A DNA stretch of 27,077 nt from contig JBMYRY010000001.1 in NCBI GenBank assembly GCA_049602795.1, positions 1 to 27,077 of the forward strand, in the 5' to 3' direction. Under the pieces are notes generated by a model. The model searched no databases and had not been told where the DNA came from. It saw only the letters and a list, made by a program, of their open reading frames with translations. The DNA is from Bradymonadia bacterium (GTDB lineage Bacteria > Myxococcota_A > Bradymonadia > UBA7976 > UBA1532). Shown piece by piece: positions 1-17,049 of this stretch. The position numbers and the translations under genes were made by a program. Each line of letters starts with the position of its first letter. The first letter of the stretch is position 1.

Positions 1-252
1 GCGCTTCTACCAAGCTTAACGAGCTTTGGCATGGCCCTGGGATTCATTGTGAGCGGCGCGCTACTTACGGAAGTGGTGTTCTCGTATCCCGGGCAAGGCT
101 ACTTGCTCGTGAAGGCAGTGCTGGCTCAAGATTTCCCGCTCATGCAAGGTCTCTTTTTGGTCATTACGCTTTCCGTCTTGATCGCCAATCTTCTCGTGGA
201 TGTCCTCTACTGGTTTTTGGACCCAAGAACCCGGGAGGGCGCTACACAATGA
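1..252 (+). CDS. ABC transporter permease, DppB/OppB family (5'-truncated by the window edge)
   Basis: Frame is open from base 1 (ALLPSLTSFGMALGFIVSGALLTEVVFSYPGQG...QDFPLMQG...ANLLVDVLYWFLDPR). This matches the typical DppB C-terminus (E-x-VF-x-x-PG-x-G, D-x-P, LDPR). The stop overlaps the next ATG (ATGA). Confidence 0.93.
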   Translation, partial: ALLPSLTSFGMALGFIVSGALLTEVVFSYPGQGYLLVKAVLAQDFPLMQGLFLVITLSVLIANLLVDVLYWFLDPRTREGATQ

Positions 253-1142
253 GAGGATTTTGGGCCAACAAAAAAGCGCGCGTTGGATGCATCCTGGTTG
301 GCATGCTATGCCTGCTCACGGGCGCAGCGCATGTACTGATGGCATCGGATGCCGCATCATCGCAACACCATCCATCTCTGGTACCCCCAAGCTTGAACTA
401 TTGGTTTGGAACCACGATTCAAGGTCAGGATGTATTCGCCCAATTTATTCTGGGCGCAGCACCGACCATCTACTTCGCTGTAGTGATTGGCATCGGGGTC
501 ACAATCCTAAGTATTCTGATCGGCGTAACCGCCGGATTTGTAGGTGGTTGGGTCGACCACTTTCTGAGCCTGGTGATCAATATCTTTCTCCTCATTCCTG
601 GGTTGCCTCTGATGATTGTGCTGGCGGCTCTACTCCCAACTGGACCAGGCAGTATTGCTCTCGTCCTCATCGTGACGGGATGGCCATGGGGGGCACGCGT
701 CCTCCGTAGCCAAGCACTCACCCTGAGTCAACGTCCATTTATGGAAGCAGCAAGGCTATCTGGCGATGGGCGTCTGAGTCTAATCTTCATCCATCTTGTC
801 CCAAATATGGCCTCGCTCATCGGGACTTCATTCATTGGGGCAACAACATACGCAGTCGGTGCCCAGGTAGGTCTTGAGTTTCTCGGCTTTGGTGACCCGG
901 CTGCGGTCACTTGGGGCACGAATCTTTACTGGGCTACAAATGACCAATCACTGCTGACTGGCGCTTGGTGGACATTTTTGCCCACGGGACTCGGTATCGC
1001 CTTGTTTTCATTTGGACTTGTTCTGATGACCTTTGCACTTGATGAAATCACCAATCCCCTGTTGAGCACCCGAAGAGTCTTCAGGCGAGTCACCGGGAAT
1101 CGTCCCGATTTAGACACTGTGATTACGGAGGAAATGCCATGA
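249..1142 (+). CDS. ABC transporter permease, DppC/OppC family
   Basis: Motifs FGTTIQGQDVF, GxxAGFxGGxVD and the EAA loop (FMEAARLSG). Multiple hydrophobic segments. ATGA overlaps on both sides. Confidence 0.93.
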   Translation: MRGFWANKKARVGCILVGMLCLLTGAAHVLMASDAASSQHHPSLVPPSLNYWFGTTIQGQDVFAQFILGAAPTIYFAVVIGIGVTILSILIGVTAGFVGGWVDHFLSLVINIFLLIPGLPLMIVLAALLPTGPGSIALVLIVTGWPWGARVLRSQALTLSQRPFMEAARLSGDGRLSLIFIHLVPNMASLIGTSFIGATTYAVGAQVGLEFLGFGDPAAVTWGTNLYWATNDQSLLTGAWWTFLPTGLGIALFSFGLVLMTFALDEITNPLLSTRRVFRRVTGNRPDLDTVITEEMP

Positions 1143-1945
1143 ATATCCTCACCGTAGAACATCTGTCAGTGAAGTATGCAACAGCGCAAACCACAGTCAC
1201 GTCAGTTGATGATGTCAGTTTTCACATCAAGCCTGGAGAAACGCTGGGGCTTGCTGGTGAATCTGGATCAGGTAAGTCCACGGTCGCAAAAGCAATCATG
1301 CGGATCCTACAGGCTCCAGGTTTCATTGCTGGTGGTAGCGTTACTCTATGCGGCGAAGATCTTTTCCGCCTGCCATCCGAACACCTGAGGTCTCTTCGGT
1401 GGTCTGAAGTTGCTATGGTTTTCCAAAGTGCACTCGACAGTTTAAACCCAGTCATGCGCATTCGTAATCAGTTCGACGATCTGGCTCTTGCGAAGCGTAA
1501 TCAACGCTTCACACCCGATGAGCTCGGCGAGCTTCTTCGGCTTGTGGACCTTCCACCAACTGTCATGGATGCATACCCACATCAACTCTCTGGAGGTATG
1601 CGGCAAAGAGTCGGCATCGCGCTCGCCCTATCTCTCAAGCCTAAACTCCTCATTCTCGACGAACCGACCACCGCGCTTGATGTCGTCGTTCAACGCCACA
1701 TCCTTCGGAGACTGCTTGAAGCTCAAAAAACACTTGGCTTTGCGATTTTGTTTATTACGCATGACCTACCTGTGCTCATGGCAATTTCTCACAGAATTGC
1801 GATCATGAAGAATGGTCAACTCTGTGAGATTGATACGCCAGAACAACTAAGAAGCAACCCGGCACATCCCTATACACAGCAATTATTGAACTCAATGGGA
1901 TTACTCAAAACAGGTATCAAAGGCGCCGAGCGAGGGCACGAATGA
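1139..1945 (+). CDS. ABC transporter ATP-binding subunit, DppD/OppD family
   Basis: Walker A GESGSGKS, Q-loop MVFQ, signature YPHQLSGGMRQR, Walker B ILDEPT, H-loop ITHDL, and an HPYT motif. Confidence 0.95.
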   Translation: MNILTVEHLSVKYATAQTTVTSVDDVSFHIKPGETLGLAGESGSGKSTVAKAIMRILQAPGFIAGGSVTLCGEDLFRLPSEHLRSLRWSEVAMVFQSALDSLNPVMRIRNQFDDLALAKRNQRFTPDELGELLRLVDLPPTVMDAYPHQLSGGMRQRVGIALALSLKPKLLILDEPTTALDVVVQRHILRRLLEAQKTLGFAILFITHDLPVLMAISHRIAIMKNGQLCEIDTPEQLRSNPAHPYTQQLLNSMGLLKTGIKGAERGHE

Positions 1946-2769
1946 ACCAACTCATACTAGATGGATTGTCGAAGTCCTTTCGAGTCAACGGCCGAACACA
2001 TCAGGCAGTACACCCATTCGAATGTAGCCTCGATGCAGGTAAAATCGTCGCCATCGTGGGTGAGTCAGGTTCTGGCAAAAGCACCATCGCTAGAATGGTG
2101 GTCGGTCTTGAAACACCGGATACCGGTGGAGTGACCGTTAGCGACGGCTCTACATCCAGAAGACCAAAGCTGACAGACGTCCAAATGGTCTTTCAGGATC
2201 CATTTGCCTCGCTTAATCCGGTCCACACGGTGCATACGCACTTGGCACGCACGATACGCCGATTACGAACAGATATCATTGGGACCAAATCAATAAGCCA
2301 TGAGGTTCAACGATTGCTTGAGGTGGTGGAATTGAAACCCGTCGATGACTACATCGACCGATATCCAGGTTCACTGAGCGGTGGTCAACGTCAACGTGTA
2401 GCGATTGCGCGTGCCTTGGCACCTAAACCCGCATTCATCGTTGCCGACGAACCTACATCCATGCTCGACGTGTCGATCAGGAAAGACATTCTGAATCTAC
2501 TGTCCCAGCTTAAGGCTGAAAATGTGGGGATCATGCTCATTACTCACGATCTCTTAAGCGTCAAAAGCATTGCCGATCGGGTGTATGTCCTCAAGGACGG
2601 CGTCTGTGTCGAATCGGGACCCACGGAGCAGGTGCTTTCGAAACCATCACATCCATATACGCAGACGCTCTGTGCGGCTGTGCCCGACCCCGACGGTCAT
2701 TTCCTAAGGGACGAGGGCGAAAATTCAAATCAACATCAAGAACAAACACGTTCGACGCTGAACGTTTAG
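1942..2769 (+). CDS. ABC transporter ATP-binding subunit, DppF/OppF family
   Basis: Motifs GESGSGKS, MVFQDPFASLNP, LSGGQRQR, VADEPTSMLD, ITHDL and HPYT. Confidence 0.95.
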   Translation: MNQLILDGLSKSFRVNGRTHQAVHPFECSLDAGKIVAIVGESGSGKSTIARMVVGLETPDTGGVTVSDGSTSRRPKLTDVQMVFQDPFASLNPVHTVHTHLARTIRRLRTDIIGTKSISHEVQRLLEVVELKPVDDYIDRYPGSLSGGQRQRVAIARALAPKPAFIVADEPTSMLDVSIRKDILNLLSQLKAENVGIMLITHDLLSVKSIADRVYVLKDGVCVESGPTEQVLSKPSHPYTQTLCAAVPDPDGHFLRDEGENSNQHQEQTRSTLNV

Positions 2770-2780
2770 GGGTGAGAGAA

Positions 2781-4151
2781 ATGAAATATAAATTCCCAAA
2801 TGATTTTGTATGGGGCGTAGCAACCTCATCATTCCAAATTGAAGGTGCAACCCAAATCGACGGTAGAGGACCATCCATTTGGGACACCATGTGCGACGAA
2901 GCCGGACGCATCGCCGATGGCACCAATGGTCATATTGCCTGTGACCATTATCATCGATACGAGGAAGACGCTGACATCATGGCTAATTTAGGCATTCCAT
3001 CGTATCGCTTCTCGGTTGCTTGGCCACGCATCTTGCCAAATGGGGTTGGGCAGGTAAATGAGTCGGGGCTTGACTTTTACGACCGGCTCGTGGACGCACT
3101 CCTCAAACGAGGCATAGAGCCGTGTATGACGCTTTATCACTGGGACTTACCTCAAGCGCTTGAGGACCGTGGCGGTTGGACCGAGCGAATGATCGTGGAT
3201 GCTTTCGTGAACTATACCGATGTGGTGACGCGACGACTGGGCGACCGACTCGGTTCAATCATCACGCATAACGAACCGTGGTGCATTAGCGTTCTTGGAT
3301 ACGTCAATGGTGAACATGCTCCCGGCATCAAGCAAGACTGGAATAAAGCGCTTCGCTGTGCCCATCATTTGAACGTATCGCATGGAATGGCCATGCCCGT
3401 GATTAGACAGAATGCACCTAATGCACTGGCTGGAATCACCATCAACCTCTGCCCGAACGAACCTGCAAGTGACAGTGACGCAGACCGTGAAGCGACCCGA
3501 AAATTCGATGGTTTCTTTAATCGCTGGTACCTAGATCCCATCTTTAGAGGCACGTACCCACAAGATCGAATCGAAGACCTCGTTGCCGACGGGACCTTGA
3601 ACGAACCATCGTTAGATTTTGTTAAACCGGGAGATATGGACATCTGCAAGACACCTGTCGACTTCCTAGGGATTAATTATTACTCCCGCGCAGTCATTCG
3701 ATCAGATGCGGTCAAAGACGAAGAAAATGACCCCGTATTGCGCGTTCAAGACGGACCTCGAACAGATATGAACTGGGAAGTCCACCCGGAAAGCCTCGAG
3801 AGGCTTTTGGTTCGTTTGAAAGACGAGTACGCCCCTGAACGCATTATCATCACCGAAAATGGTGCAGCCTACCCCACCGGGGTTTCCGACGACGGCAAAG
3901 TACATGACCAAGAGCGCATCGACTATTTCCGTGGTCATCTCGTAAGTTGCGCCAAAGCCATTGAACAGGGTGTCCCACTCACCGGCTACTATGCATGGTC
4001 GTTAATGGACAACTTCGAATGGGCTTTTGGATACGAAAAGCGATTTGGTTTGGTGCACGTTGACTACGACACGCTTGTACGAACCCCGAAGGAAAGTGCG
4101 AAGTATTACGCGAGTGTCATCGCGCAGAATGAGGTCTCTGATGAAGAATAG
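2781..4151 (+). CDS. Glycoside hydrolase family 1 beta-glucosidase (no signal peptide, likely cytoplasmic)
   Basis: FPxDFVWGVATSSFQIEG N-terminal signature, YRFSVAWPRI, TLYHWDLPQ, acid/base THNEPW, nucleophile ITENG, and WSLMDNFEW...KRFGL. ATG at 2781 is preferred; in-frame GTG at 2772 is the alternative start. Confidence 0.96.
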   Translation: MKYKFPNDFVWGVATSSFQIEGATQIDGRGPSIWDTMCDEAGRIADGTNGHIACDHYHRYEEDADIMANLGIPSYRFSVAWPRILPNGVGQVNESGLDFYDRLVDALLKRGIEPCMTLYHWDLPQALEDRGGWTERMIVDAFVNYTDVVTRRLGDRLGSIITHNEPWCISVLGYVNGEHAPGIKQDWNKALRCAHHLNVSHGMAMPVIRQNAPNALAGITINLCPNEPASDSDADREATRKFDGFFNRWYLDPIFRGTYPQDRIEDLVADGTLNEPSLDFVKPGDMDICKTPVDFLGINYYSRAVIRSDAVKDEENDPVLRVQDGPRTDMNWEVHPESLERLLVRLKDEYAPERIIITENGAAYPTGVSDDGKVHDQERIDYFRGHLVSCAKAIEQGVPLTGYYAWSLMDNFEWAFGYEKRFGLVHVDYDTLVRTPKESAKYYASVIAQNEVSDEE

Positions 4152-7100
4152 GTTCGCGTTATTGGTGCTGTTTTTAGGCGCAATCGCCGCACAGAGCACG
4201 CCTGCGGTGGAGTTAAAACGCCTCCAACCCAATGATGCCAACCAGGCTCGTCTGCACGTCAAGCCCGTGACGGTGGTCGCAAACGAGAACGGTGCTCATT
4301 TAGAAGTAGATGGTACACCGTTTCTAGTTCGGGGCATGAACTGGGGCTATATGCCCATCGGGCAGAACTATAGTTATGACCTCTGGTCTAAAGATGAAGC
4401 GTTCATTACTACCGTTTTGCATCGCGAAATGGGTCAGCTAAAGGCGCTGGGCGTCAATGCCATCAGACTCTTTAGTGATGTCCCTCCCAAATGGGTGGAA
4501 TGGATGTACGACAAGTATGGCATTCGAGTGGCACTCAACCATTTGATGGGTCGTTACGGCTTCAATGTTCAAGGCGTTTGGGTCAGCAATATTGATTACG
4601 CGAACCCAACGCACCGCAAAGCGATTCTGGAAGACCTGGAAAAAAACATCAAACGCTACACCGGCACGCGCGGCGTCCTGATGTGGCTATTGGGCAACGA
4701 AAACAACTACGGATTGCACTGGACTTCCTTCGAAATCGAGCCCCTTCCCGGAGAGGAAGATAAGGTCCGTGCAAAACCGTTGTATACCCTAATGGAAGAA
4801 GCTGCGTCGCTGATCAAACGTCACGACACACTGCATCCCATCTCATTAACGAATGGCGACCTTCAATACCTAGACATCATCGTCAAGACCTGCCCGAGCG
4901 TAGATATCTTTGGCAGTAATGTGTACCGAGGCAAAAGTGCCCGCGACTTCTACAGCCGCATCTGGAAAAGCTTCAAGAAGCCAGCCATGTTTACAGAATT
5001 TGGCTCCGACGCATTTAACGCAAAAACCGGCAAGGAAGACGCATTGATGCAGGCTAAAATGCTGGAGCGCCAATGGCATGACATCTATGCAAACACCGAG
5101 CCCATTGGAGGGAGCCGAAATGCCATCGGCGGCTTCGTGTTTCAGTGGTCCGACGGCTGGTGGAAGTACAAACAAGAGGAAAACCTGGATGTACATGACA
5201 CCAATGCAAGCTGGCCGAATGGGGGCTATCCGGACTTTGTGGAAGGCTTCAACAATATGAATGAGGAGTGGTTTGGCATCAACGCGAAAAGCCGCCCTGA
5301 TGCTGATGGACACTACCAACTCTATCCAAGAACCGCGTATTTCACCCTGCAACACATCTGGCGCCTGGACCCGTATGCAGAGGGTACAACCATCGCGTCC
5401 GTGGACGAGCACTTCAATCAAGTCAACTTCGCCCAGTTCGATGCGACGTACACGACGATCTTGAACCAAAACCGGGTTGAAAAAATTGAAAAACTCAAAC
5501 TCAACACATTTCTCCTAAAACTATCGTCTAACTTCTCAACTCGGAATCCTGCCGCAGGAGGGAATGACCAACTCACCTTTGACCATACGGAGTCGTTCAC
5601 GGTGGGGTTTGAAGCCCGACCCACGGCAAGGTCTCGAGCAGACCTCAGCATCAATGTGGTGGGCAACGTCGCTCAGAACCGATTAAACCCAATTTTCTAC
5701 GAAAACCGTGGTGAAGAATTCACCGTGATTGATGTTGACGGCGAGCGCCAGCAAATGACCACCCTTGACCGACTCCGGGTGTATCAAAGTAGTTTTGAAA
5801 TCGAAGAGAAACAATTCGATCTCGAGGGCTATTATCGAACCGGTCACTACCACTGGGGTGATGAAGGTGACTTTTTCGGGCTTTACCGATTCGCTTTCTA
5901 CGGTGAAAACCTCGACATTTACGATGGGAATGCACCTTTCGGCGCCGTGTTTACTGGAAAGAAAAAAATGAAAGGGCTCAAGGTAGCGTTCGGTCCGGAG
6001 TTATACTGGGGCGCCAACCCAGCGGTGATCGCCAAGTATCGCAAGGCGCTATGGGGCACCACCTTAACTCTCATGCATCAGGAAGACCTGGCAAGCCGTG
6101 CAGATGTCACAACCAGCTCGGTGATCCCCGAACCACGGTCTCGAAAAACGACGGTCACAACCGAATGGGGCATTGGTAGTCTCAAACTACAAATTGGCGG
6201 TATCCTAGCCGGTACCCGTCGTTTAGGACGCACGTACTACGAAACTGAAAAGAGCGATGGACCGGGCTACCAGAATAGCGGCATTGATGTGTACTCGAAT
6301 ACCATTCAATGGGCTGACACCTGGGGTGTACGTGGACGACTCGATGGTGCGATCGGTCGAAGTTTGATCCACCTTCAAGCGTCATACATGGGCTTGGTCG
6401 CTGACGGCGGTCCCGATGCACGTGAAACCAACTTCACCCTTCGAGAGAGTGGGCGAGGCAACCACTATGCATTTGAAGCAGCAAGCTATTTTGCGCTTGG
6501 TCACTTCAGCTTCGGACCCAAGGGCATTTACCAAGTCCCACTCGTAGGTCCGATCGACCCAGTGGAAGGCGGAATCGACGCAGCCAATGGCATCTTTTAT
6601 CCGGCAGTTACACTCAGAAATGTCTTAGACGACCCATTTATTGTTAGAGAGAATCGGGAAACCATCGCCGGTCAATTCACCTTTGTTTACGATCCAACAC
6701 CAGCTACTTGGTTCTGGATGTGGGACCGAATTGACCGCGAAACAAGCCCGTTTGCAATGGCAATACGAAGTACGTATTGGCACCGGCCGACAGCACAGGA
6801 TGCGCGCGTCGCCATCTTTGCCAACGGTGTTCAAGGTCCATTCGGGAACAGTGTGCCCGCTCGAGACAGTTGGCGGACTGAGTTAGATTGGGTTGCAAAC
6901 TACAAAGGATTCCGTTTTTACGGTAATGGATTCATCGGTAAAGAGGACGCCTGGGGTGAAGCAACTCGACAAGTGTTTCACTTTGGGACGATGGCCGGGA
7001 TGAATCACCGCGGTACCTCGGCTCTCTTGGATGTTAGATTTAATGATTGGGGTCCGTACGACTATCACCGTGACTTTAACCTCACCTATCCATTTCAATT

Positions 7101-7278
7101 GCGCGGTGAACTTGCTTGGGGTCTCAAACCGAGCCGAGTCGGTCAAAATCGAACTCGCTTCGGGGTAAGAGGTATTTATCGTCAGTTGGACGTGTACTCA
7201 GAGGGCTACTCGGATCCGCTGTCCGAATCGCTAGGCATTGAATCTGAAATTCAAACCTTCATGGAGTTTGCGCTATGA
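4141..7278 (+). CDS. Secreted clan GH-A-like (GH2 TIM-barrel-like) glycoside hydrolase fused to a predicted C-terminal outer-membrane beta-barrel, 1045 aa
   Basis: Start re-called at ATG 4141, which gives the signal peptide MKNRFALLVLFLGAIAAQSTPA and an 11-nt overlap with the GH1 stop. The N-terminal half has VDGTPFLVRGMN, LGVNAIRLF, acid/base-like LLGNE (4693-4701) and nucleophile-like FTEFG (4993-5004). The C-terminal ~590 aa contains many short amphipathic, aromatic-rich strands. The barrel is inferred, not proven. Confidence 0.8.
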   Translation: MKNRFALLVLFLGAIAAQSTPAVELKRLQPNDANQARLHVKPVTVVANENGAHLEVDGTPFLVRGMNWGYMPIGQNYSYDLWSKDEAFITTVLHREMGQLKALGVNAIRLFSDVPPKWVEWMYDKYGIRVALNHLMGRYGFNVQGVWVSNIDYANPTHRKAILEDLEKNIKRYTGTRGVLMWLLGNENNYGLHWTSFEIEPLPGEEDKVRAKPLYTLMEEAASLIKRHDTLHPISLTNGDLQYLDIIVKTCPSVDIFGSNVYRGKSARDFYSRIWKSFKKPAMFTEFGSDAFNAKTGKEDALMQAKMLERQWHDIYANTEPIGGSRNAIGGFVFQWSDGWWKYKQEENLDVHDTNASWPNGGYPDFVEGFNNMNEEWFGINAKSRPDADGHYQLYPRTAYFTLQHIWRLDPYAEGTTIASVDEHFNQVNFAQFDATYTTILNQNRVEKIEKLKLNTFLLKLSSNFSTRNPAAGGNDQLTFDHTESFTVGFEARPTARSRADLSINVVGNVAQNRLNPIFYENRGEEFTVIDVDGERQQMTTLDRLRVYQSSFEIEEKQFDLEGYYRTGHYHWGDEGDFFGLYRFAFYGENLDIYDGNAPFGAVFTGKKKMKGLKVAFGPELYWGANPAVIAKYRKALWGTTLTLMHQEDLASRADVTTSSVIPEPRSRKTTVTTEWGIGSLKLQIGGILAGTRRLGRTYYETEKSDGPGYQNSGIDVYSNTIQWADTWGVRGRLDGAIGRSLIHLQASYMGLVADGGPDARETNFTLRESGRGNHYAFEAASYFALGHFSFGPKGIYQVPLVGPIDPVEGGIDAANGIFYPAVTLRNVLDDPFIVRENRETIAGQFTFVYDPTPATWFWMWDRIDRETSPFAMAIRSTYWHRPTAQDARVAIFANGVQGPFGNSVPARDSWRTELDWVANYKGFRFYGNGFIGKEDAWGEATRQVFHFGTMAGMNHRGTSALLDVRFNDWGPYDYHRDFNLTYPFQLRGELAWGLKPSRVGQNRTRFGVRGIYRQLDVYSEGYSDPLSESLGIESEIQTFMEFAL

Positions 7279-7757
7279 GAAGTTATCTTACCCTCGTGTT
7301 GTTGTGTGTCATCAGTTGTGGGGATCCTTCGGAGCCTCTCCTTGGTACTCCCATTGATCGTAGTCCTTTTGACCCGATAGACCAAACCGCAGGGATCCAT
7401 CCGAGCACGTCGGTGTTGACCGATCCAGCAAACCTTTATCGTAATCGACCACCAACTGAAGATGCGAAGTGGGATGTGCAATCACTAGGGGATCCGAAAT
7501 TGGCATTCTACGCGTTCGCCAGCGCCCTAACCCGAGTACCAACGGGGGAAAACCAATATTATGTAGGGATCAATCTTAAGCGTATGTCCGATCTCAATCT
7601 CGTGGCACCAGGTAAGGAGACCATGGTCCGAAACATGGCCATCAGAGCTTTTGAAACAGTCATTGAACAATTCCCCAACGATTTGACGTACGAGGCTGAC
7701 GGAGAAACGAGCTATAACGTAGCCGACTTCGCTCGAGACCAACTAACAAAGTTCTAG
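7275..7757 (+). CDS. Uncharacterised lipoprotein, last gene of the glycan operon
   Basis: Signal peptide II with lipobox (MRSYLTLVLLCVIS-C) and an ATGA overlap with the upstream gene. No recognised family. Confidence 0.8.
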   Translation: MRSYLTLVLLCVISCGDPSEPLLGTPIDRSPFDPIDQTAGIHPSTSVLTDPANLYRNRPPTEDAKWDVQSLGDPKLAFYAFASALTRVPTGENQYYVGINLKRMSDLNLVAPGKETMVRNMAIRAFETVIEQFPNDLTYEADGETSYNVADFARDQLTKF

Positions 7758-8064: not shown

Positions 8065-9372
8065 ATGATGACGAACTACACCGCGCGACAACAAGCTCAA
8101 GAGGCTCGAAGTGCGAGTCGCGCACTCAACCAGCTTTCATCAAATGAGCGTGCACAACTCCTAAATGATGTCGCCAATGCACTCCTCACTCAACAGGCGC
8201 GAATTATATCTGCCAACCAAGAGGACCTTGCCGATGCTCAACAAGCGGTCAATGAAGGGCGTCTCGCGACCGAGTTATACAATAGGCTCAAGATTGACAG
8301 CGCTCGACTCGAATCGCTTGCTGAAGGCATTAGAAGTATTGCCAATATGCCAGAGCCCATTGGTCAAATTCTCGTTGATCGAGACCTTGGTGAAGGCCTG
8401 CATTTGCAACAAGTCTCAGCACCGCTCGGTGTTGTACTCGTCATTTTCGAAGCACGTCCAGACGCATTGCCACAAATTGCAGCGCTCGCGCTGCGAAGTG
8501 GAAATGGCTTGATTCTCAAAGGTGGTCGTGAAGCTCGACGATCCAATGCCGTGTTGCATGATGTAATCGGTGAAGCGATTGAGACCTTTGTACCGCGCAC
8601 CGTCATCGGTCTCGTCGAAACGAGAGAAGAAATTCATGACTTGCTCGCACTCGACGACGTGATTGATTTAGTCATCCCAAGAGGATCCAATGCGCTCGTC
8701 CAGATGATTCAATCAAACACCAAAATCCCCGTAATGGGGCATGCCGACGGCGTATGCCACATCTACTTGGATGAAAGTGCTACTCTGGCTCAAGCAGTCG
8801 CGATCATTAACGACTCCAAATTAGATTACCCGGCGGCATGCAACGCGGTTGAGACGCTTCTTGTCCATCGAAAATGGCTCGAACAATATACGTTTGAGGC
8901 ACTGCAAGACGGATGCGCCGCCATCCTATTCCGAACAGCAGGTATTGACCCAACGCTTGCACAACTACCTCAAGCACCCGCTCTACATCATGAATACGGA
9001 GATGCTCAGCTCACGATCCACATTGTAGATACCTTGGATGACGCAATCGACCACATTCATCAATACGGGTCCGGACACACGGAATCCATTATTACGAATG
9101 ACACTGAGAAGGCTGATACATTTCTGAAGCGCGTGGATAGCGCCTCGGTCTTTTGTAATGCCAGTACTCGATTCGCCGACGGCTATCGATACGGACTTGG
9201 AGCCGAAGTTGGCATCAGCACCTCCCGTCTCCATGCACGGGGACCGGTTGGCGTAGACGGTCTCCTCACCACACGTTGGCTGATGCGCGGTAACGGACAT
9301 ACGGTAGGCGCCATCAAACGAGGTGAATGGGTCTTTGACTGGCGAGAACGACACATCGAAAGGCGAGACTGA
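8065..9372 (+). CDS. proA: Gamma-glutamyl phosphate reductase (glutamate-5-semialdehyde dehydrogenase)
   Basis: Motifs [44 protein letters not shown], catalytic [17 protein letters not shown] and NASTRFADG...GAEVGIST...HARGPVG. SD-like AAGGA at 8050-8054. Confidence 0.96.
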   Translation: [435 protein letters not shown]

Positions 9373-9374
9373 CG

Positions 9375-12300
9375 ATGGCATCGGAACGTACATTGATTGA
9401 AGGATGGTCGCGTCAAGAGCAAGGCATCCTGAAAGAAATTGAGACTCATCTTGCCACTGTTGAAGAAATGGTCCTAAGCCCTACCCAGCTGAACCAGGCA
9501 ACGTCTATGATCGCTGGGCTATGTTTAGCATTATCAAAACACTTGGAAACGAAAGCTGAGAAGAAACAGAGCGACCAATTATCGCAGCTGATGAATGACG
9601 ACCTCGGACAATTATTTTCAACACTACTCACCGACCGTGTGCCACGCCTAGCCGATGGCGCCGATGTCACACGTCAAGCAAGAAACGTCCTATCGAAAAC
9701 CGGTGTCCCAGCTTCCATGCCACTGTTGGACCAATGTCAGTTGATGGGTCTGAAGATGTTTGGAACGGTAGCGCCAAAGCTCATTGGAAATGCCGTGCGA
9801 AAGCGAATCCGGAAGGAGGCACAGACCTTTCTCATGCCCGGAGAGCAGCAAGCATTGTCTGCCGGCGTTAAATCACTCAAAGCCTCCGGTGTGCAGGTCA
9901 ATGTGAATCAACTTGGTGAGGAGGTATTAGGCGATATCGAAGCACGAAAGCATATGGATGCTTATCTAGAACTTCTCAATACGGAAAGCATCGATACCAT
10001 TTCGGTCAAAAGTTCCTCCATCTGTGCCCAACTCTCAGTGCTGGCATTCGACACCTCGCTCCATCGCATTTGCGATGCACTTCGGGAATTGTATCGCGCA
10101 GCCCGCGGCGAAAATGGTCAGTCGGATAAACTTGTCATGCTTGATATGGAAGCTTATCGAGACCTCGAAATGACTTTCACTGCGTTTAAAACAGTTCTTG
10201 ATGAACCGGAGTTTCTATCATTAAAGGCAGGGATTGTCTTACAGGCATATTTGCCAGACTCACATGATGTACATCAAGGTCTGATTGAATGGGCTAAGGC
10301 ACGTCGAGCACGAGGCGGTTCGGCAATTCAACTCCGTCTCGTCAAAGGAGCGAATCTCGCCGTAGAGAAAATTGAATCGGACATTGCCGGCTGGTCTATC
10401 CCCATTTTCCCAAGCAAAACCGATGTGGACGCCAGCTTTAAATTGATGGTGGAACGAGCGCTCACCAGTGAACATCTATCAAATGTAAAGGTCGGTATTG
10501 CGAGTCATAATTTATTCGACGTGGCGTATGCGCTGTGCTTAACGAAGCAACGTCATCTCACCGAAGGAGTGCACTTTGAGGTTCTCTCGGGCATGGCTGG
10601 GGGACTGTCTCGGGTGTTGCTCGGACTCGGTTGTCGCGTATTGGTCTATAGTCCAGCGGTCACCGATGCAAACTTGCACGCAGCAGTGGCATACCTTGTT
10701 AGACGACTCGATGAAAATACAGCCGACCAAAACTTCCTGAGGCATAGCTTCAATATGAGCGTGGGTGATGACGCGTGGCTGAGCCAGGAGCGAGGATTTG
10801 TGGAGAGTCGAAAGCGGAGCCTCACTCTATCGCTCAAACGCAGACGTCGCAGCCGATTGGAGCCCGCCCGCGAAACTGCCGAAGGCTTTAGCAATGCTCC
10901 GGATACCGACTTTACGTTGCGTGAAAATCGGACATGGCTCGCGGAGAAAATCACCACTCAACACCAGGCATCCATCCGGACCATTCGTTCGTCCCATTAC
11001 GACGCAAGCGAGTCCCATGTTACTCGTGACGGATATGACCCATCTGCACCGAATAGCACACCGTATACGATAGAACTCGCAACGTGCGCCGAGTTGGAAC
11101 AGATGCTCACAACCGCCGCAGCATCGACATCATCATGGTCAACCACGAGCCCCGAAAAACGTGTCTCGCTCCTTCGAACGCTAGCCGACCACATCGAATT
11201 ACGTCGTGGCGAGATCATTGCAGCGCTCATGCTGGATGGGGGTAAAGCGGTCATTGATGCAGATGCTGAAGTCAGTGAGGCTATCGATTTTTGCCGGTAT
11301 TACGCCCATCGATATAACCGTCTCATGGCGGATGAGCAACATGCGTACACAGCACGCGGAGTGACCGTGGTCACGCCGCCCTGGAATTTCCCATTTGCGA
11401 TTCCTTTGGGGGGCGTTGCAGCTGCATTGGTGACCGGAAACCCGGTGATTCTTAAGCCAGCCATCGAAACCCCCTATATCGCTCACGTTTTGTTTGAGTT
11501 GTGCCAAAAGGCGGGCATCCCCGGAGGGATTCTTCAATTCGTCGTGACCGACGACGAGACCGCTACCCCTCTAATCACCGACTCAAGAGTAAAAACGGTG
11601 GTTCTAACTGGCGGAACATCGACTGCCCACCTGTTCAAACGGATTCGACCGGACCTTCACCTCCTGGCTGAAACGGGGGGTAAAAATGCCACGATTGTGA
11701 GTCACTTTGCTGATCAAGATCTCGCGATTAACGCCATCATACAAAGTGCGTTTGGTCACGCCGGTCAAAAATGTTCAGCAACCAGCCTGCTGATCATCAC
11801 GGATGCGCTGGCACAGGACTCGAGCTTCCGATCACACCTAATCGATGCCGCGAAGAGCATGAGTGTAGGTCCTGCTTGGTCTCTCGACGCTCGAGTGACA
11901 CCGCTCATCAATCCGCCACAAGGTGACCTCTTGAAGGCCCTAACGACGCTAGATGAGGGGGAATCTTGGTGGCTCGAACCCAAGGTGAGCCCGGAGAACC
12001 CTCGCCTCTGGAGCCCTGGTATCAAGGGCCCGGTGCAACCTGGTTCGTTCAGCCATCTTACTGAGTTTTTTGGCCCCGTACTCAGTGTGATGGTCGCGAA
12101 AGACCTCTCGCAGGCGATTGAATGGGCGAATGCAACCCCCTATGGTCTTACGGCAGGCTTTCATTCACTCGACGAAAGTGAACAACGACAATTCCTTGAA
12201 ACCATGAACGCCGGTAACCTATACGTCAATCGCACTACAACCGGTGCGATCGTTCAACGACAGCCCTTCGGCGGACGTAAAGCATCGTGCTTTGGACCCG

Positions 12301-12971
12301 GTGCAAAGGCGGGCGGACCAAACTACTTGAAAATGTTCGTGCACCAAAACCCGATCGGGGCTGCCTCCCTCGCCAATGGTCAGGTACACCCAATCCTACA
12401 CCGCCTTGTAGAGTCATGGCGTGCGCTCAGTTTCGAGCTCACCGCCGCAGCGCGCTTGTTTTCAGACGAGATTACCCAGTTGAACAGGCGATACGACCCT
12501 TGCCAGATCTCGGGTCAAGACAACCTGTTCCGTTATCAGTTTTCACTGCGAGTCCTCGTGCTCGCCTTTGAGGGATTCGATCCAATAGACCTCGCACGCG
12601 TGCACCTAGCCCTTGCCATATGCGGAAATCCATACCAAATTATCATCGCAGGTCAACCAAGCTATTCAAATGCGGTTCAACTTCGCCACGTGCTATCAAA
12701 TGATCTACTCGACACACCGTGGGACGCCGCGATCGACGCCAAGCAACACGACCACATTCGCATTCTAGGAACTCCACCAGAGACACTCTACAACCGTTCA
12801 ACCTCTGCGCGCTGCATCGACAACACACCAGTCTGTCATGGGATAGAGGAACTCAGAAAGTACACAGTAGAACAAAGCATCTCACTTGACTATCACCGCT
12901 ATGGGCATCTCGGTCTGCGCGAAAAGTCTTTAGAGTCGGTCGTCGGTACGGTTACGCCATTCGCTCCATAG
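9375..12971 (+). CDS. putA: Bifunctional proline dehydrogenase / L-glutamate gamma-semialdehyde dehydrogenase (PutA); no N-terminal DNA-binding domain recognised
   Basis: PRODH motifs LDMEAYRDL, GIVLQAYLPDS, RLVKGANL, ASHNLFD and YLVRRLDEN. ALDH motifs PWNFP, ETGGKN, catalytic GQKCSA, EFFGP, YGLTAG and QPFGG. Confidence 0.95.
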   Translation: MASERTLIEGWSRQEQGILKEIETHLATVEEMVLSPTQLNQATSMIAGLCLALSKHLETKAEKKQSDQLSQLMNDDLGQLFSTLLTDRVPRLADGADVTRQARNVLSKTGVPASMPLLDQCQLMGLKMFGTVAPKLIGNAVRKRIRKEAQTFLMPGEQQALSAGVKSLKASGVQVNVNQLGEEVLGDIEARKHMDAYLELLNTESIDTISVKSSSICAQLSVLAFDTSLHRICDALRELYRAARGENGQSDKLVMLDMEAYRDLEMTFTAFKTVLDEPEFLSLKAGIVLQAYLPDSHDVHQGLIEWAKARRARGGSAIQLRLVKGANLAVEKIESDIAGWSIPIFPSKTDVDASFKLMVERALTSEHLSNVKVGIASHNLFDVAYALCLTKQRHLTEGVHFEVLSGMAGGLSRVLLGLGCRVLVYSPAVTDANLHAAVAYLVRRLDENTADQNFLRHSFNMSVGDDAWLSQERGFVESRKRSLTLSLKRRRRSRLEPARETAEGFSNAPDTDFTLRENRTWLAEKITTQHQASIRTIRSSHYDASESHVTRDGYDPSAPNSTPYTIELATCAELEQMLTTAAASTSSWSTTSPEKRVSLLRTLADHIELRRGEIIAALMLDGGKAVIDADAEVSEAIDFCRYYAHRYNRLMADEQHAYTARGVTVVTPPWNFPFAIPLGGVAAALVTGNPVILKPAIETPYIAHVLFELCQKAGIPGGILQFVVTDDETATPLITDSRVKTVVLTGGTSTAHLFKRIRPDLHLLAETGGKNATIVSHFADQDLAINAIIQSAFGHAGQKCSATSLLIITDALAQDSSFRSHLIDAAKSMSVGPAWSLDARVTPLINPPQGDLLKALTTLDEGESWWLEPKVSPENPRLWSPGIKGPVQPGSFSHLTEFFGPVLSVMVAKDLSQAIEWANATPYGLTAGFHSLDESEQRQFLETMNAGNLYVNRTTTGAIVQRQPFGGRKASCFGPGAKAGGPNYLKMFVHQNPIGAASLANGQVHPILHRLVESWRALSFELTAAARLFSDEITQLNRRYDPCQISGQDNLFRYQFSLRVLVLAFEGFDPIDLARVHLALAICGNPYQIIIAGQPSYSNAVQLRHVLSNDLLDTPWDAAIDAKQHDHIRILGTPPETLYNRSTSARCIDNTPVCHGIEELRKYTVEQSISLDYHRYGHLGLREKSLESVVGTVTPFAP

Positions 12972-13135: not shown

Positions 13136-15655
13136 TTGAGGACGAAAAATATACAACTCTTTCTCTTGTCGTTTGCACTTAGTTTTAGCGCATGTAGTGA
13201 ACTACCTGATGTTCAAGGAGACCGGCAGTTTGGGGGCGAAGATGGATCAATTACTCCCCAGCAATTCGATGGAAGCACGGGGGATCAAGGCATCATGCCG
13301 ACCCAGGATGCTCAGGTCATTCACGAATGGAACACGCGCACCGTTTTCGAAGCGCTAGAGCCTATGTGCGGTGTTTGTCACGGAGAAGGACAAAGTAGTC
13401 CTTACTTTGCTAGTCTCTCGAATTTTGTCGATACCATCGTCGCGGATGAGAACTACATCGTACTCGGCGAGCCCGATAGTAGCGAACTCCTTACCTTGCT
13501 AGACGGAAGTTTCGACGGTCCCCTGTCACAAATGCCACCGTCAGGTGACACGTATTTCTCACGCATCGAGGGCGATTTAACGAAGCCAGACCTTGAAGAC
13601 TTGCGCGGTTGGATTGAAAGACTGACGTCGCTGCCGACCATTGACGATCAACGTACATGCGCAACGATACATGCACCGAAATTGCTCCACCGATTGAATC
13701 GACTTGAATATAATCGTTCTGTTCAAACACTGCTCGAAACAACTCAACTACCGGCAAACGACTTTCCGTCTGAAGACCAGAGCTTTGGTTTTGACAATAT
13801 CGCCCAGGCGCTGGCCGTAAGTCCGCTTCTTGTGGAGAAATATGACCTCGCCGCGCAGGCACTCGCTGAAGAGGCCCTACCTACCCCAAGTGCCCGACGA
13901 CAAACTTACTTCTTCGAAGCTGAGAGTGAAATGACCGCCTCAACAGGTGGTCCTTCCGGCGAAGGATGGAATCTATGGTCTAACGGCAGTCTGACAGCGA
14001 ACGTCAATCTGCCTGCACCAGGACGCTACCAAATCGTGGCATTTGCACGGCAACAGCAGGCCGGTCCTGATCCTGCACAAGCACGATTTACAATTGATGG
14101 ACAAGGCGTTTACACATTCAATGTGAGCGACACTGAGCGGCAAGAATATCGGTTTGAAAACATTAATATTGAGGCAGGTTTTCACATCATCGGCATCGAA
14201 TTCCTCAACGACTATTACTGCCCCCAAATGCGATTTGACAACGGTCAATGCGGCAACGGCAACCCTGCACTCATAGGAGACCGAAATCTCATCGTCGATT
14301 GGGTGTCGCTCGAAGGACCACTCGACGGACAACCTGTTCAAAGCCGTTTTGCAGACACCTTCCTACAGAACTGCGACCTCACCACGGGTCCGAATGCCCA
14401 CACGTGTGCTCGAGATGCTGTCGATCGATTTGCACGCTTCGCTTGGCGCCGCCCGATCACCCAGAACGAATCTGATAGATTATGGACACTTGCGAGCGCC
14501 GAATTTGACCAAGAAAACGGTCTTACAAATGGTCTGCGACAAGCACTTCATGCCATTCTCTTGTCACCCCATTTTCTGTTTAGAGTGGAACAAGCCGGGG
14601 CACCGGGTAGCCCGTTAAATGGATACGAAAGAGCAACTCGCCTCTCGATGTTCTTATGGCGCACCACACCATCAGAGGCATTGCTCGACCAAGCTGCGGA
14701 CGGCATCCTCGACACGCCTGAGGGCGTCGCCGAGGTCGCGTCAGCAATGTTCGACGACGCGATTCCCATGATGGATGACCTTGCCAACCAATGGCTACTT
14801 TTGCATCAAGCCCGCCTGGTGGATCCAGATTATGCGCTCTTCCCTGATTTTGATGAAGCACTCCGCGATAGCATGGTGACCGAAACCACCCTTCTATTCC
14901 GCACACTCTTTGTTGAGAACCGACCTCTCCTGGATTTAGTGAATGCTGACTTCACCTTTATCGATGAGCGACTTGCAGCACATTATGACCTGCCAGCGCC
15001 AACCAGCCGCTCATTTGAACGGATAGACCTACCCGCTGGCAACCGGAAAGGCGTGTTAACCCATGCGTCATGGCTGTCGGCAACGTCCCAACGCACCCGA
15101 ACCTCGCCAGTCAAACGCGGAAAATGGGTGTTAGAGGAATTATTATGTGCTGCACCACCACCGCCACCACCGAGCGTAGAAGGGCTACCGGAGGATGTAG
15201 ACCAGAATGCCTCGCTGAGAGAAAGATTGGAACAGCACCGAGCTGACCCTGAATGTGCGACGTGCCATACCCACATGGACGCTGCAGGGTTTGGTCTGGA
15301 ACAATTCGATGCGATTGGCGAATTTAGGACGCACGATGGAGATGACCTAATCGAGCCCACCGGGGCATTGAATGATGGGACACCATTCTCAAGCGCAATC
15401 GAAATGGCTGATGCAATTCGTCGTCACCCCGATCTCGGACCATGTCTCACCAATAAAATCCTGATCTATGCCCTCGGTAGGGGGCTAGAGGACAATGAGT
15501 TCTGTTTCGTTGACGATATTAGCAACCAAGCTGCCCGTGATAACTATGAGACCCGCTCTCTGATTAACGCAATTGTTCAAAGCCCTCTGTTTTTGAATCG
15601 CGGCGAAAACCAATCAGAAGCCAGTCAAATGAGCGACGAGGAGAATGACCAATGA
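13136..15655 (+). CDS. DUF1592-family (DUF1587/1595/1592/1588/1585) lipoprotein with an N-terminal cytochrome c-like domain and an inserted CBM-like beta-sandwich
   Basis: TTG start after AGGGGG. Lipobox LSFSA-C. CGVCH at 13367-13381 followed by GEPDSSEL...QMPP. Family motifs RLNRLEYNRSV, FARFAWRRP, LLSPHFLFR, RLSMFLW, RTSPVKRGKWVLEELLC, CATCH (15254-15268) and YALGR. The insert ends in EFLNDY...GDRNLIVD. Confidence 0.88.
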   Translation: MRTKNIQLFLLSFALSFSACSELPDVQGDRQFGGEDGSITPQQFDGSTGDQGIMPTQDAQVIHEWNTRTVFEALEPMCGVCHGEGQSSPYFASLSNFVDTIVADENYIVLGEPDSSELLTLLDGSFDGPLSQMPPSGDTYFSRIEGDLTKPDLEDLRGWIERLTSLPTIDDQRTCATIHAPKLLHRLNRLEYNRSVQTLLETTQLPANDFPSEDQSFGFDNIAQALAVSPLLVEKYDLAAQALAEEALPTPSARRQTYFFEAESEMTASTGGPSGEGWNLWSNGSLTANVNLPAPGRYQIVAFARQQQAGPDPAQARFTIDGQGVYTFNVSDTERQEYRFENINIEAGFHIIGIEFLNDYYCPQMRFDNGQCGNGNPALIGDRNLIVDWVSLEGPLDGQPVQSRFADTFLQNCDLTTGPNAHTCARDAVDRFARFAWRRPITQNESDRLWTLASAEFDQENGLTNGLRQALHAILLSPHFLFRVEQAGAPGSPLNGYERATRLSMFLWRTTPSEALLDQAADGILDTPEGVAEVASAMFDDAIPMMDDLANQWLLLHQARLVDPDYALFPDFDEALRDSMVTETTLLFRTLFVENRPLLDLVNADFTFIDERLAAHYDLPAPTSRSFERIDLPAGNRKGVLTHASWLSATSQRTRTSPVKRGKWVLEELLCAAPPPPPPSVEGLPEDVDQNASLRERLEQHRADPECATCHTHMDAAGFGLEQFDAIGEFRTHDGDDLIEPTGALNDGTPFSSAIEMADAIRRHPDLGPCLTNKILIYALGRGLEDNEFCFVDDISNQAARDNYETRSLINAIVQSPLFLNRGENQSEASQMSDEENDQ

Positions 15656-17049
15656 GCAAGAATAACTCACGCGGCCCCTTGATTCGCGGTTTTGACACTG
15701 GTTTATCTCGACGAACCTTTCTTTGGGGTGCGGGTGCAACCCTGGCACTACCATGGCTTGAGGCGATACGCGCTCCGGGCTTCATCAAGGGTGCTCGGGC
15801 ACAAACGCCTATGCTCACAAAACGCTTTCTCGGTTTCTATACGCCCTGCGGCTTCAATATGAATGAGTTTTGGCCCAACAGTGTCGGTGCACTGAGCAAT
15901 GCGACACTCACGGGTACATCTCTTGAAGGTTTAATCCCTCATCTCAATGAGATTCTGGTGATTCGTGGACTAGACAATCACGCCGGTTCAGCGCAAGGGG
16001 ACGGTCCAGGTGACCATGCACGAGGCACAGCCACATTTCTTACTTGTGTGCACCCTTACAAGCATGCTTCCGACGTACGTATTGGTCCATCAATAGACCA
16101 ACATATTGCACGCTTCTACGAAGCCGAAACTCGATTCGCGTCCGTGGAAATTGGATGTGAAGGCGGTGGTAATGAAAATGCCTGCGACTCGGGATACAGT
16201 TGCGCATACAGTCGAAACATTGCGTGGCGTGATGCTCAAACACCGCTGCCCAAGGAAACCAGTCCGCGACTCCTCTTTCAGCGTTTATTTGGTACCGTTG
16301 ATCCAAATGCAACGCCTGAAGCCATCGCGAACCGAAGGCGACAGCGGCGAAGTGTTCTAGACTTTGTTTTGGCAGATGCAAACCAACTCAGTCAATCGAT
16401 GGGACATGCTGACAGAGTTCGACTCGAATCTTATATGGATGGCATTCGCACGATCGAACAACGCATTGAATCGAGTGAGCAGGATACATCTCAGTGCGGC
16501 AGCGACCTTACGCCGCCAACATCAGCGCCCGCGGACCGAGCGGCCTATGCTGCATTGATGCTCGATATTCTCGTAGAGGCAATGCGATGCGACCTGACCC
16601 GCGTCGGCACATTTATGCTCGGCAATGGTGGCAGTAATCGCTCCCATACTGAAATCGGAATTTCACAAGGGCATCATGAGTTGTCACACCATCAAAATGA
16701 CGCGACGACTCTTAACCGGATCGCCCAAATTGATCGATGGGAAGTGGGTATGCTCGCAGCGCTATTGGATCGAATGAAATCGGTTGATATGGGTGGTCAC
16801 AGTCTTTTAGATGAAACCACCCTCTACTTTTCTAGCGAAATTGAAGATGGCAACGCACATCGGCATTACAACTTGCCTATCGTCGTCGCTGGACGCTCAG
16901 GTGGACTCACAAATGGCCGATTTGTAGATGTGAGTGGTGCGCAACAAAACAACGCCCCCGTCGCTGATCTCTTCCTGAGGTTTGCTCATGATGTCGGCGT
17001 CACACTGCCCGCATTCGGAGACGACGGCACAGCACCGCTTAACGTGTAA
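15652..17049 (+). CDS. DUF1552 (HXXSHH family) Tat-exported protein
   Basis: Twin-arginine signal LSRRTFLWGAGATLALPWLE, motifs SIDQHIA, CDLTRVGT, HELSHH (16675-16692), LLDETTLYFSSE and HRHYNLP...G. ATGA overlap with the DUF1592 gene, which is the usual partner. Confidence 0.92.
   Translation: MSKNNSRGPLIRGFDTGLSRRTFLWGAGATLALPWLEAIRAPGFIKGARAQTPMLTKRFLGFYTPCGFNMNEFWPNSVGALSNATLTGTSLEGLIPHLNEILVIRGLDNHAGSAQGDGPGDHARGTATFLTCVHPYKHASDVRIGPSIDQHIARFYEAETRFASVEIGCEGGGNENACDSGYSCAYSRNIAWRDAQTPLPKETSPRLLFQRLFGTVDPNATPEAIANRRRQRRSVLDFVLADANQLSQSMGHADRVRLESYMDGIRTIEQRIESSEQDTSQCGSDLTPPTSAPADRAAYAALMLDILVEAMRCDLTRVGTFMLGNGGSNRSHTEIGISQGHHELSHHQNDATTLNRIAQIDRWEVGMLAALLDRMKSVDMGGHSLLDETTLYFSSEIEDGNAHRHYNLPIVVAGRSGGLTNGRFVDVSGAQQNNAPVADLFLRFAHDVGVTLPAFGDDGTAPLNV

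Follow-up and report, generated by a model that had tools for sequence, protein, structure and literature searches.

Gene content and layout of the operon

The stretch of DNA analysed here, referred to as the window, comprises 27,077 nt and represents the entire contig C1 of a metagenome-assembled genome (MAG; 3.35 Mb, 71% completeness) of a Bradymonadia bacterium. Its subject is an operon for a sugar importer, glycosidases and an unusual outer-membrane protein, which probably serves the use of beta-1,3-glucan. On the plus strand of the window, the operon appears as a run of seven genes, which had been described from the sequence alone as a translationally coupled glucan-utilisation locus built on a peptide-family ATP-binding cassette (ABC) importer, and this layout was confirmed by the listing of open reading frames (ORFs) and by the junction sequences. 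The run starts with the 3' end of the gene for an ABC permease B of the DppB/OppB type (1..252, 83 codons, BPD_transp_1 at 4.2e-16), which is cut by the contig start, followed by the genes for permease C of the DppC/OppC type (249..1142, 297 aa, BPD_transp_1 at 4e-18), ATPase D (1139..1945, 268 aa, ABC_tran at 2e-30 with a partial oligo_HPY tail) and ATPase F (1942..2769, 275 aa, ABC_tran at 2.3e-29 and oligo_HPY at 1.4e-8). The next genes code for a predicted cytoplasmic beta-glucosidase of glycoside hydrolase (GH) family 1 (2781..4151, 456 aa, Glyco_hydro_1 at 8.8e-168 and TIGR03356), the GH-barrel protein P0001 (4141..7278, 1045 aa), as defined by its translation, homologues and structural model, and the small lipoprotein P0002 (7275..7757, 160 aa), which has a VISC lipobox. 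ATGA stop/start overlaps are located exactly at 249-252, 1139-1142, 1942-1945 and 7275-7278, the GH1 and GH-barrel genes overlap by 11 nt at 4141-4151, and an 11-nt gap is present at 2770-2780, with the Shine-Dalgarno-like sequence GGGGTGAG preceding the ATG at 2781. Because four-base overlaps are ordinary in operons, this tight packing is evidence of co-transcription but of nothing beyond it.

The window lacks the upstream half of the operon, which was found elsewhere in the MAG by using the binding protein and the GH16 enzyme of a close relative as queries. It is carried by contig C130 (6938 bp), which, read in reverse, contains the genes for an 802-aa lipoprotein (C130 (L101) 4439-6847, minus strand), a ROK protein, a GH16 lipoprotein, a family-5 binding lipoprotein and the first 241 codons of permease B. 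The upstream flank holds both a solute-binding protein (SBP_bac_5) and a regulator (ROK). All gene junctions on C130 are 0-4 nt, and an AT-rich leader of 91 nt lies ahead of the first gene. Compared with a homologue of 328 aa, the part of permease B on C130 corresponds to residues 1-241 and the part in the window to residues 246-324. The gap between the contigs amounts to about 11-12 nt, as judged against contig L102 (ENA ERZ28548094, 120,658 bp), which carries the entire operon on one contig with 84-86% nucleotide identity. Because the contig ends align to adjoining parts of the permease homologue and lie about 11 nt apart on L102, we conclude that the locus is an operon of eleven genes with an assembly break inside the permease B gene. 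Its order is the 802-aa lipoprotein, the ROK protein, the GH16 lipoprotein, the family-5 binding lipoprotein, two permeases, two ATPases, GH1, the GH-barrel protein and the small lipoprotein. The genes called on L102 show many frame breaks, which leave the binding protein and the permeases in fragments and look like long-read indel errors rather than decay.

The GH-barrel protein and its small lipoprotein

The P0001 protein is made up of a signal peptide (MKNRFALLVLFLGAIAAQS), a domain of clan GH-A, a linker helix and an outer-membrane beta-barrel of about 26 predicted strands, and its full-length AlphaFold2 (AF2) model reached a pLDDT of 82.7. Its full-length homologues number more than 4000 and measure 1000-1100 aa, and the best annotation among them is 'GH2 TIM barrel-domain containing'. 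One of the GH-barrel homologues, P0204 (1218 aa), carries an extra N-terminal CBM_4_9 domain before the catalytic domain.

The catalytic TIM-barrel domain (residues 40-430 approximately, 4258..5430) gave only a weak match to the GH2_C TIM-barrel family in Pfam and was assigned by sequence, profile and fold matches to solved structures. A sequence search of the PDB retrieved GH158(Pro) (9oro, 5.1e-8), and a profile search retrieved 9oro (1.1e-7) and 6pal (1.7e-6) with the Asn-Glu (GNE) and TE(F/W)G motifs aligned. By sequence, the PDB relatives of the domain belong to GH158 first and then to GH2, with no other families represented; the similarity to GH158 is partial, spanning about 140-190 residues with 18-24% identity. 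In the fold search, GH157 came first (Z 27.3), ahead of GH158 (Z 26.9, 24% identity), and GH2 and GH5 were no more than one Z unit behind. Both GH157 and GH158 are families of beta-1,3-glucanases. The predicted acid/base pair N186-E187 (nt 4696-4701) and the predicted nucleophile E286 (nt 4996-4998) are all invariant in 35 sequences and represent the counterparts of the catalytic residues N136/E137/E220 of BuGH158 (PMC7157763). Judging from sequence and model, the N-terminal domain of P0001 is an intact retaining clan GH-A enzyme of a GH158-like type, which shares the clan GH-A TIM barrel, the aligned Asn-Glu acid/base and the Glu nucleophile with BuGH158 (6PAL) and GH158(Pro) (9ORO). Unlike BuGH158, P0001 is devoid of a C-terminal Ig-like domain: its model contains no beta-sandwich at this place, and the helices 418-427 and 431-449 connect the TIM barrel directly to the barrel strands. 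GH158(Pro) releases laminaribiose processively and also cuts mixed-linkage glucan (PMC13195107). Because the match to GH158 is weak and other clan GH-A families are almost equal in structure, we derived the linkage specificity of P0001 mainly from its context.

A structure search with the full-length model yielded TIM-barrel matches only, and the C-terminal barrel domain (residues 452-1045 approximately, 5494..7275) was folded separately for a search of its own. The resulting AF2 model shows 26 long strands with a pLDDT of 90.3 and a pTM of 0.86. All of its top structural matches are outer-membrane barrels, namely FimD (Z 14.7), PapC, MtrB, the barrels of TonB-dependent transporters (TBDTs) and 18-strand porins, which agrees with the outer-membrane placement proposed by the sequence-only reading. 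The barrels of AlgE, PgaA and PelBC are also among the fold matches (Z 9.8-12.1). No Pfam family was detected for the barrel domain (last 600 residues), and P0001 matched none of the Autotransporter, LptD or usher families of Pfam, nor Plug (PF07715) or TonB_dep_Rec (PF00593), even when its C-terminal half was searched at E 10. Because the structural matches show only 5-11% identity and template-modelling (TM) scores of at most 0.38, the predicted fold identifies the P0001 barrel as a new family of outer-membrane barrels of the large size class.

In size, the barrel resembles MtrB, which has 26 strands and associates with MtrA/MtrC, and the 24-strand barrels of FimD and PapC, with Z values of 12-14.7 in these comparisons. 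It differs from all three in its low identity, in its fused domain, which is an enzyme, and in its cargo, which would be an inward-moving glycan. SusC-like TBDTs have 22 strands, a Plug domain and a TonB box, whereas P0001 has about 26 strands and no Plug, and TBDT barrels resemble it only generically (TM 0.3-0.38). Type Va autotransporters likewise consist of a passenger, a helix and a barrel in this order, but their barrel has 12 strands. A 26-strand barrel together with a small lipoprotein is also known from LptD/LptE, which P0001 and P0002 may resemble. GluM, the outer-membrane beta-1,6-glucanase of Corallococcus with Oar/TBDT-like character, was considered as a possible identity of P0001 and dropped on the basis of protein features, since P0001 has none of the TBDT type.

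Turns of 2-3 residues join each even strand to the next odd one in the barrel model, and long loops join the odd to the even strands. Because short turns are usually periplasmic, strand 1 should begin on this side, and the linker helix and the enzyme are thus most likely located in the periplasm. The same would apply by the usual topology of large lipoprotein-associated barrels, whose soluble N-terminal domains are periplasmic. Alternatively, helix 431-449 may thread the lumen in an autotransporter-like manner, with the enzyme outside.

The signal peptide of P0002 ends in the lipobox LCVISC, and Cys15 is invariant in 21 aligned homologues, which also share several invariant motifs, while no Pfam or NCBIfam family was detected for the protein. 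A hidden Markov model (HMM) built for the P0002 family picked out the direct 3' neighbour of the barrel gene at 34 further loci, 10 of them represented by two locus identifiers each, and a P0002-like lipoprotein follows the barrel in most of the non-Bacteroidota loci with enough sequence. Two stand-alone barrels, P0173 and P0195 (L103 2296-4636 and L104 4165-7206), are 588-598 aa in size, have a signal peptide each, lack the enzyme domain and are 24-29% identical. Their contigs are short and informative only for the match of the downstream lipoprotein, and a P0002-family gene is indeed located directly after both of them (HMM values of 1.4e-26 and 6.8e-14). Because the lipoprotein also follows these enzyme-less barrels, the partnership, which is deduced from co-occurrence alone, belongs to the barrel and not to the enzyme. 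The HMM gave no match in the surveyed loci of Bacteroidota, Balneolales and Gemmatimonadota. In Bacteroidota, the gene after the barrel codes for a Big_2/CBM lipoprotein of 500-630 aa, for which no homology to P0002 was detected. A complex prediction of the barrel domain with the mature lipoprotein scored 0.24 against a mark of 0.32 and was used neither for nor against an interaction.

The absence of SusC/SusD proteins and TonB receptors claimed by the sequence-only reading holds for both contigs: neither C1 nor C130 contains a TonB-dependent receptor or an adjacent SusC/SusD-like pair, and a Pfam search of the 27-kb window, including 19 kb outside the operon, gave no Plug, TonB_dep_Rec or SusD match. 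Five genes with Plug domains are present elsewhere in the MAG, on five other contigs. On L102, no receptor is found within 10 kb upstream of the operon; the genes just 5' of it have no Pfam match on record, and the nearest four are divergent. We also scanned the surroundings of homologues for ORFs of at least 600 aa and considered the 25 most frequent families, a procedure that could have missed a receptor or two in the 100 ORFs. TonB_dep_Rec and Plug were not among these 25 families, either for the 53 ORFs from 19 further Bacteroidota loci or for the 47 ORFs from 20 loci of other phyla.

Importer, companion proteins and conservation

By Pfam, the four ABC genes of the window encode a pair of permeases (BPD_transp_1) and a pair of ABC ATPases that have oligo_HPY C-terminal regions, and the N-terminal part of permease B on C130 matched BPD_transp_1_N. 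Their nearest NCBIfam models are Opp, Nik and Dpp, all under the cut-off, with Opp4C as the best match of permease C (145.8 bits, under the cut-off). The binding protein on C130 (SBP_bac_5, 3.8e-73) is encoded directly 5' of permease B with a 4-nt overlap. Its best PDB relatives are 6lzw (2.8e-80) and 1zty, a 'Chitin Oligosaccharide Binding Protein' (9e-78), followed at 1e-51 to 1e-43 by Thermotoga binders of mannosides and of cellobiose/laminaribiose (4pfu at 4.7e-43 and 4jsd at 5.2e-43). All 14 PDB matches below 1e-30 are binders of chito-, manno-, cello- or laminari-oligosaccharides, and no peptide or nickel binder is among them, which supports the proposed sugar type of this protein; for the homologue in locus L002, nickel and peptide binders appeared only at about 1e-20. 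The structures 4JSD and 4JSO represent the Thermotoga maritima protein tmCBP with laminaribiose and laminaripentaose (PMC3850815). Sequence comparison thus supports an importer of the Dpp/Opp (PepT) family from its oligosaccharide-binding subgroup, and the ligand of the binding protein is probably an oligosaccharide.

The predicted system shares its set of two permeases, two oligo_HPY ATPases and a family-5 binder with the known Dpp/Opp sugar importers (tmCBP 2O7I/4JSD/4JSO, 4PFU and Vibrio 1ZTY), and clustering with beta-glycosidases is common to both. In contrast to the solved sugar binders, the binding protein described here is a predicted lipoprotein in a diderm; the identity to them is moderate (bit scores of 150-274), and its ligand is predicted. 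The expectation that automatic annotation would mislabel such a transporter as a peptide importer is supported by the solved sugar-binding homologues, which themselves bear 'peptide ABC transporter' names.

The assignment of the GH1 enzyme as a cytoplasmic beta-glucosidase was upheld by an equivalog-level match to TIGR03356 (BGL, 612.6 bits vs. a cut-off of 478.5) and by its N-terminus (MKYKFPNDFVWG), which is devoid of a hydrophobic leader and thus indicates a protein without signal peptide. The GH16 protein on C130 (Glyco_hydro_16, 6.5e-26) has endo-beta-1,3-glucanases or laminarinases as its nearest solved relatives throughout (7e-71 to 1e-64; 2hyk at 7e-71 and 3azx at 1.2e-68), and these PDB relatives, rather than a CAZy subfamily model, identify it as a predicted laminarinase lipoprotein of the subfamily 3 type. 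The ROK protein is predicted to consist of an N-terminal winged-helix domain (HTH_24 at 3.8e-7 and MarR_2 at 4.4e-7) and a sugar-binding ROK domain (7.7e-46). The 802-aa lipoprotein is built from a module of about 170 aa, which is repeated three times in tandem and shows the motifs PSGYMGDGE, FWQYPANNWG and GGFGW, and it gave no match in PDB or Pfam searches. One or two copies of this module also accompany the catalytic domains of GH17 or GH16 proteins, which suggests that it may bind beta-glucan and represent a module type not described so far; the 802-aa lipoprotein would be a surface glycan-binding protein.

A survey of about 90 loci in all revealed a conserved linkage of these genes. The order of the operon is kept in L002 at 71% identity and in Corallococcus coralloides (CP034669.1, 4.776-4.800 Mb), where a GH3 enzyme with discoidin-type domains is added, as well as in Myxococcus, Archangium, Kofleriaceae and unclassified MAGs, and the ABC-bearing order was found in 12 of about 80 surveyed loci. 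In most of these 12 loci, the ABC cassette is located between the GH16 and GH1 genes, and in a few it lies downstream on the opposite strand. Among nine genomes of the same family or order with a GH-barrel gene, all nine keep the 802-type lipoprotein, the ROK protein, GH1, the GH-barrel protein and the small lipoprotein, eight keep GH16, and only four possess the ABC cassette, with GH16 on one side of it and GH1 on the other. Because the cassette is absent from five of the nine relatives and from the Bacteroidota loci, the importer is a modular, recurrent and non-obligatory addition to a conserved core, and the barrel is independent of it. The earlier placement of the host as a Myxococcota-like diderm holds as well, since a genome from its GTDB family belongs to a Bradymonadia bacterium.

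Of 301 genomes sampled from the phylum, 35 contain the barrel, which also occurs in Bacteroidota, Gemmatimonadota, Latescibacterota, Krumholzibacteriota and others. In Bacteroidota, the GH-barrel gene heads glucan clusters without SusC/SusD, such as a Flavobacterium cluster consisting of a Y_Y_Y/LuxR regulator, the GH-barrel protein, a Big_2 protein, GH16, a protein of 1153 aa, a GH17-like protein and GH30. A conserved protein of 1140-1150 aa without Pfam match is encoded between GH16 and GH17/GH30 in Flavobacterium and Chryseobacterium (L074 15520-18978 and L036 16094-19507). The partner enzymes in the other lineages are a laminarin set of GH16, GH17, GH30, GH3 and GH1. Mainly because the accompanying enzymes belong to this set everywhere, we assign beta-1,3-glucan as the probable substrate.

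One of the closest counterparts is the locus 1,3GUL of Bacteroides uniformis, which codes for an HTCS, a SusC-like TBDT, the SusD-like SGBP-A, SGBP-B and enzymes of GH16_3, GH158 and GH3 (PMC7157763). Both loci represent one co-regulated cluster for laminarin-type glucan and share a laminarinase of the GH16_3 type, a GH158-like clan GH-A glucanase, an exo-beta-glucosidase, glycan-binding lipoproteins (predicted in the MAG) and a dedicated regulator. Unlike 1,3GUL, the operon of the MAG contains no SusC/SusD, Plug or TonB box; next to its GH158-like domain, a fused barrel of about 26 strands takes the place of an Ig-like domain, import would proceed via an Opp-type ABC system, the final glucosidase is a cytoplasmic GH1 instead of a periplasmic GH3 enzyme, and the host belongs to the Myxococcota and not to the Bacteroidota.

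Downstream of position 7757, the operon is followed by 300 nt of non-coding DNA and by unrelated genes on the plus strand (8065-12971) coding for a 435-aa aldehyde-dehydrogenase-like protein and a bifunctional PutA of 1198 aa (Pro_dh and Aldedh). The same gene pair also follows the operon in L002, making the boundary syntenic. Further downstream, the window contains a gene pair of the Planctomycetes-type DUF1585/1587/1588/1592/1595 families (PSD/PSCyt; 13136-17049, plus strand), the first of which shows a CBM60-like insert, followed by a gene for a DUF1552 (HXXSHH) protein. The minus strand encodes, at 18620-23113, a protein of 1497 aa in which five or more putative copper-binding motifs of the MopE type are present.

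Proposed route and alternative explanations

We consider it fairly likely, with a probability of about 0.65, that the operon serves the use of beta-1,3-glucan of the laminarin or fungal-wall type by a TonB-independent route. In this route, the 802-aa lipoprotein would capture the glucan and GH16 would nick it outside the cell, after which chains or oligosaccharides would cross the outer membrane via the barrel of P0001, working with the small lipoprotein. The fused GH158-like retaining glucanase would trim these chains, most likely in the periplasm, to short laminari-oligosaccharides, which the Dpp/Opp-family ABC system would import and the cytoplasmic GH1 enzyme would convert to glucose; the winged-helix ROK protein would regulate the operon as a repressor. 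The gene set, the protein families and the outer-membrane barrel fold of the uptake route drawn by the sequence-only reading have all been found, and the partnership with the lipoprotein is reflected in co-occurrence. The substrate, the ligand of the binding protein, the passage of glucan through the barrel, the side of the enzyme and the role of P0002 are the inferred parts of this scheme. Several observations weigh against it: the match to GH158 is weak (E about 1e-7), with other clan GH-A folds nearly equal in score, the orientation of the enzyme is read solely from turn lengths in a predicted model, the closest solved relatives of the binding protein bind chito- and not laminari-oligosaccharides, with homology leaving the ligand unfixed, and the ABC cassette is missing in five of nine otherwise syntenic relatives and in all surveyed Bacteroidota loci.

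The GH-barrel protein and its lipoprotein may go further and represent an undescribed TonB-independent translocon for glycans in the outer membrane, with the lipoprotein gating or plugging the barrel, cleavage of the entering chain by the fused glucanase on the periplasmic face (which may be processive like GH158(Pro)) instead of TonB energy rendering uptake one-way, and the product being handed to an Opp-type binder; we offer this as a tentative model that is somewhat doubtful at present. If it were true, diderms would possess a third way of taking up polysaccharides, in addition to TBDTs of the SusC/SusD type and specific porins that act passively. This design would be modular, as the enzyme and the ABC cassette can each be present or absent, and it would extend over Myxococcota, Bacteroidota, Gemmatimonadota and other phyla.

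The barrel could instead be a surface-display anchor in the manner of an oversized autotransporter domain, presenting the glucanase to the outside via the linker helix; it would then be no sugar channel, with oligosaccharides entering by unrelated porins or receptors from other loci. The arrangement of passenger, polar 19-residue helix (431-449) and barrel recalls type Va autotransporters, the CBM_4_9 domain of one homologue is typical of enzymes that meet polymers, BuGH158 is a predicted cell-surface enzyme (PMC7157763), and five TonB-dependent receptors are available elsewhere in the MAG. However, about 26 strands far exceed the 12 needed for display, no Autotransporter match was found in Pfam, enzyme-less barrels exist and retain their lipoprotein partner, and the Bacteroidota gene heads glucan clusters devoid of SusC/SusD, which makes such an anchor rather unlikely. 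The operon may also serve another beta-glycan, such as chitin oligosaccharides, cello-oligosaccharides or mixed-linkage glucan. The Vibrio chito-oligosaccharide binders on top of the binding-protein matches are in favour of this option, as are the enzymes for other linkages present in the GH1 and GH16 families and the additional activity of GH158(Pro) with mixed-linkage glucan (PMC13195107). We regard a different substrate as improbable, since neither the operon nor its flanks contain a GH18, GH19, GH20 or N-acetylglucosamine-catabolic gene, the best matches of GH16 are all beta-1,3-glucanases or laminarinases, and other lineages combine the barrel with the laminarin enzymes GH17, GH30 and GH3.

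Two further explanations carry far less weight. A role in exporting or reshaping endogenous glucan is suggested by the general likeness of a barrel plus periplasmic glycosidase to the porin and hydrolase pairs for cellulose, poly-N-acetylglucosamine (PNAG), Pel and alginate (PgaA/PgaB, BcsC/BcsZ, PelB/PelA), and by AlgE, PgaA and PelBC appearing among the fold matches. Such a role is very improbable in view of the catabolic neighbours in every lineage examined (importer with binding protein, GH1, GH16 and ROK) and an operon without glycosyltransferase or synthase. It is hardly credible that the ABC system imports peptides or nickel and came to lie among glycosidases by chance: the under-cut-off Opp, Nik and Dpp models would agree with it, but the sugar binders reach 1e-80 to 1e-43 with no peptide or nickel binder below 1e-30, the cassette is flanked by GH16 and GH1 in the four ABC-bearing relatives, and stop and start codons overlap in this genome.

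Parts of the uptake system for beta-1,3-glucan proposed here are known already, namely sugar-importing Opp-type systems, GH16, GH158 and GH1 enzymes and ROK regulators. In contrast, a literature search that reached few subscription papers did not retrieve any description of a fusion between a glycosidase and an outer-membrane barrel or of its lipoprotein family, and outer membrane, porin and SusC are all absent from the text of the GH158(Pro) report (PMC13195107). Thus, neither the enzyme-barrel fusion nor its lipoprotein, nor a TBDT-free glucan locus based on the two, appears to have been described. New are also the joined eleven-gene operon with a sugar-type ABC cassette, which is optional, in Bradymonadia and other Myxococcota, and the fidelity of the lipoprotein to the barrel, even in its enzyme-less forms.

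Beta-glucans of the laminarin type rank with the most plentiful glycans of the sea and of fungal walls, and current uptake models for diderms rest on SusC/SusD-type TBDTs. Hundreds of loci like the one described here encode an enzyme-barrel fusion and a dedicated lipoprotein instead of such a transporter. The system is compact, and culturable relatives with genetic tools (Corallococcus, Myxococcus) make the question of its function directly testable. If the barrel is the uptake route, genome-based predictions that count SusC/SusD pairs miss an entire class of laminarin consumers, the importer is mislabelled by annotation pipelines, and predatory Myxococcota and Bradymonadia would use it to harvest the glucan of their prey or of algae.

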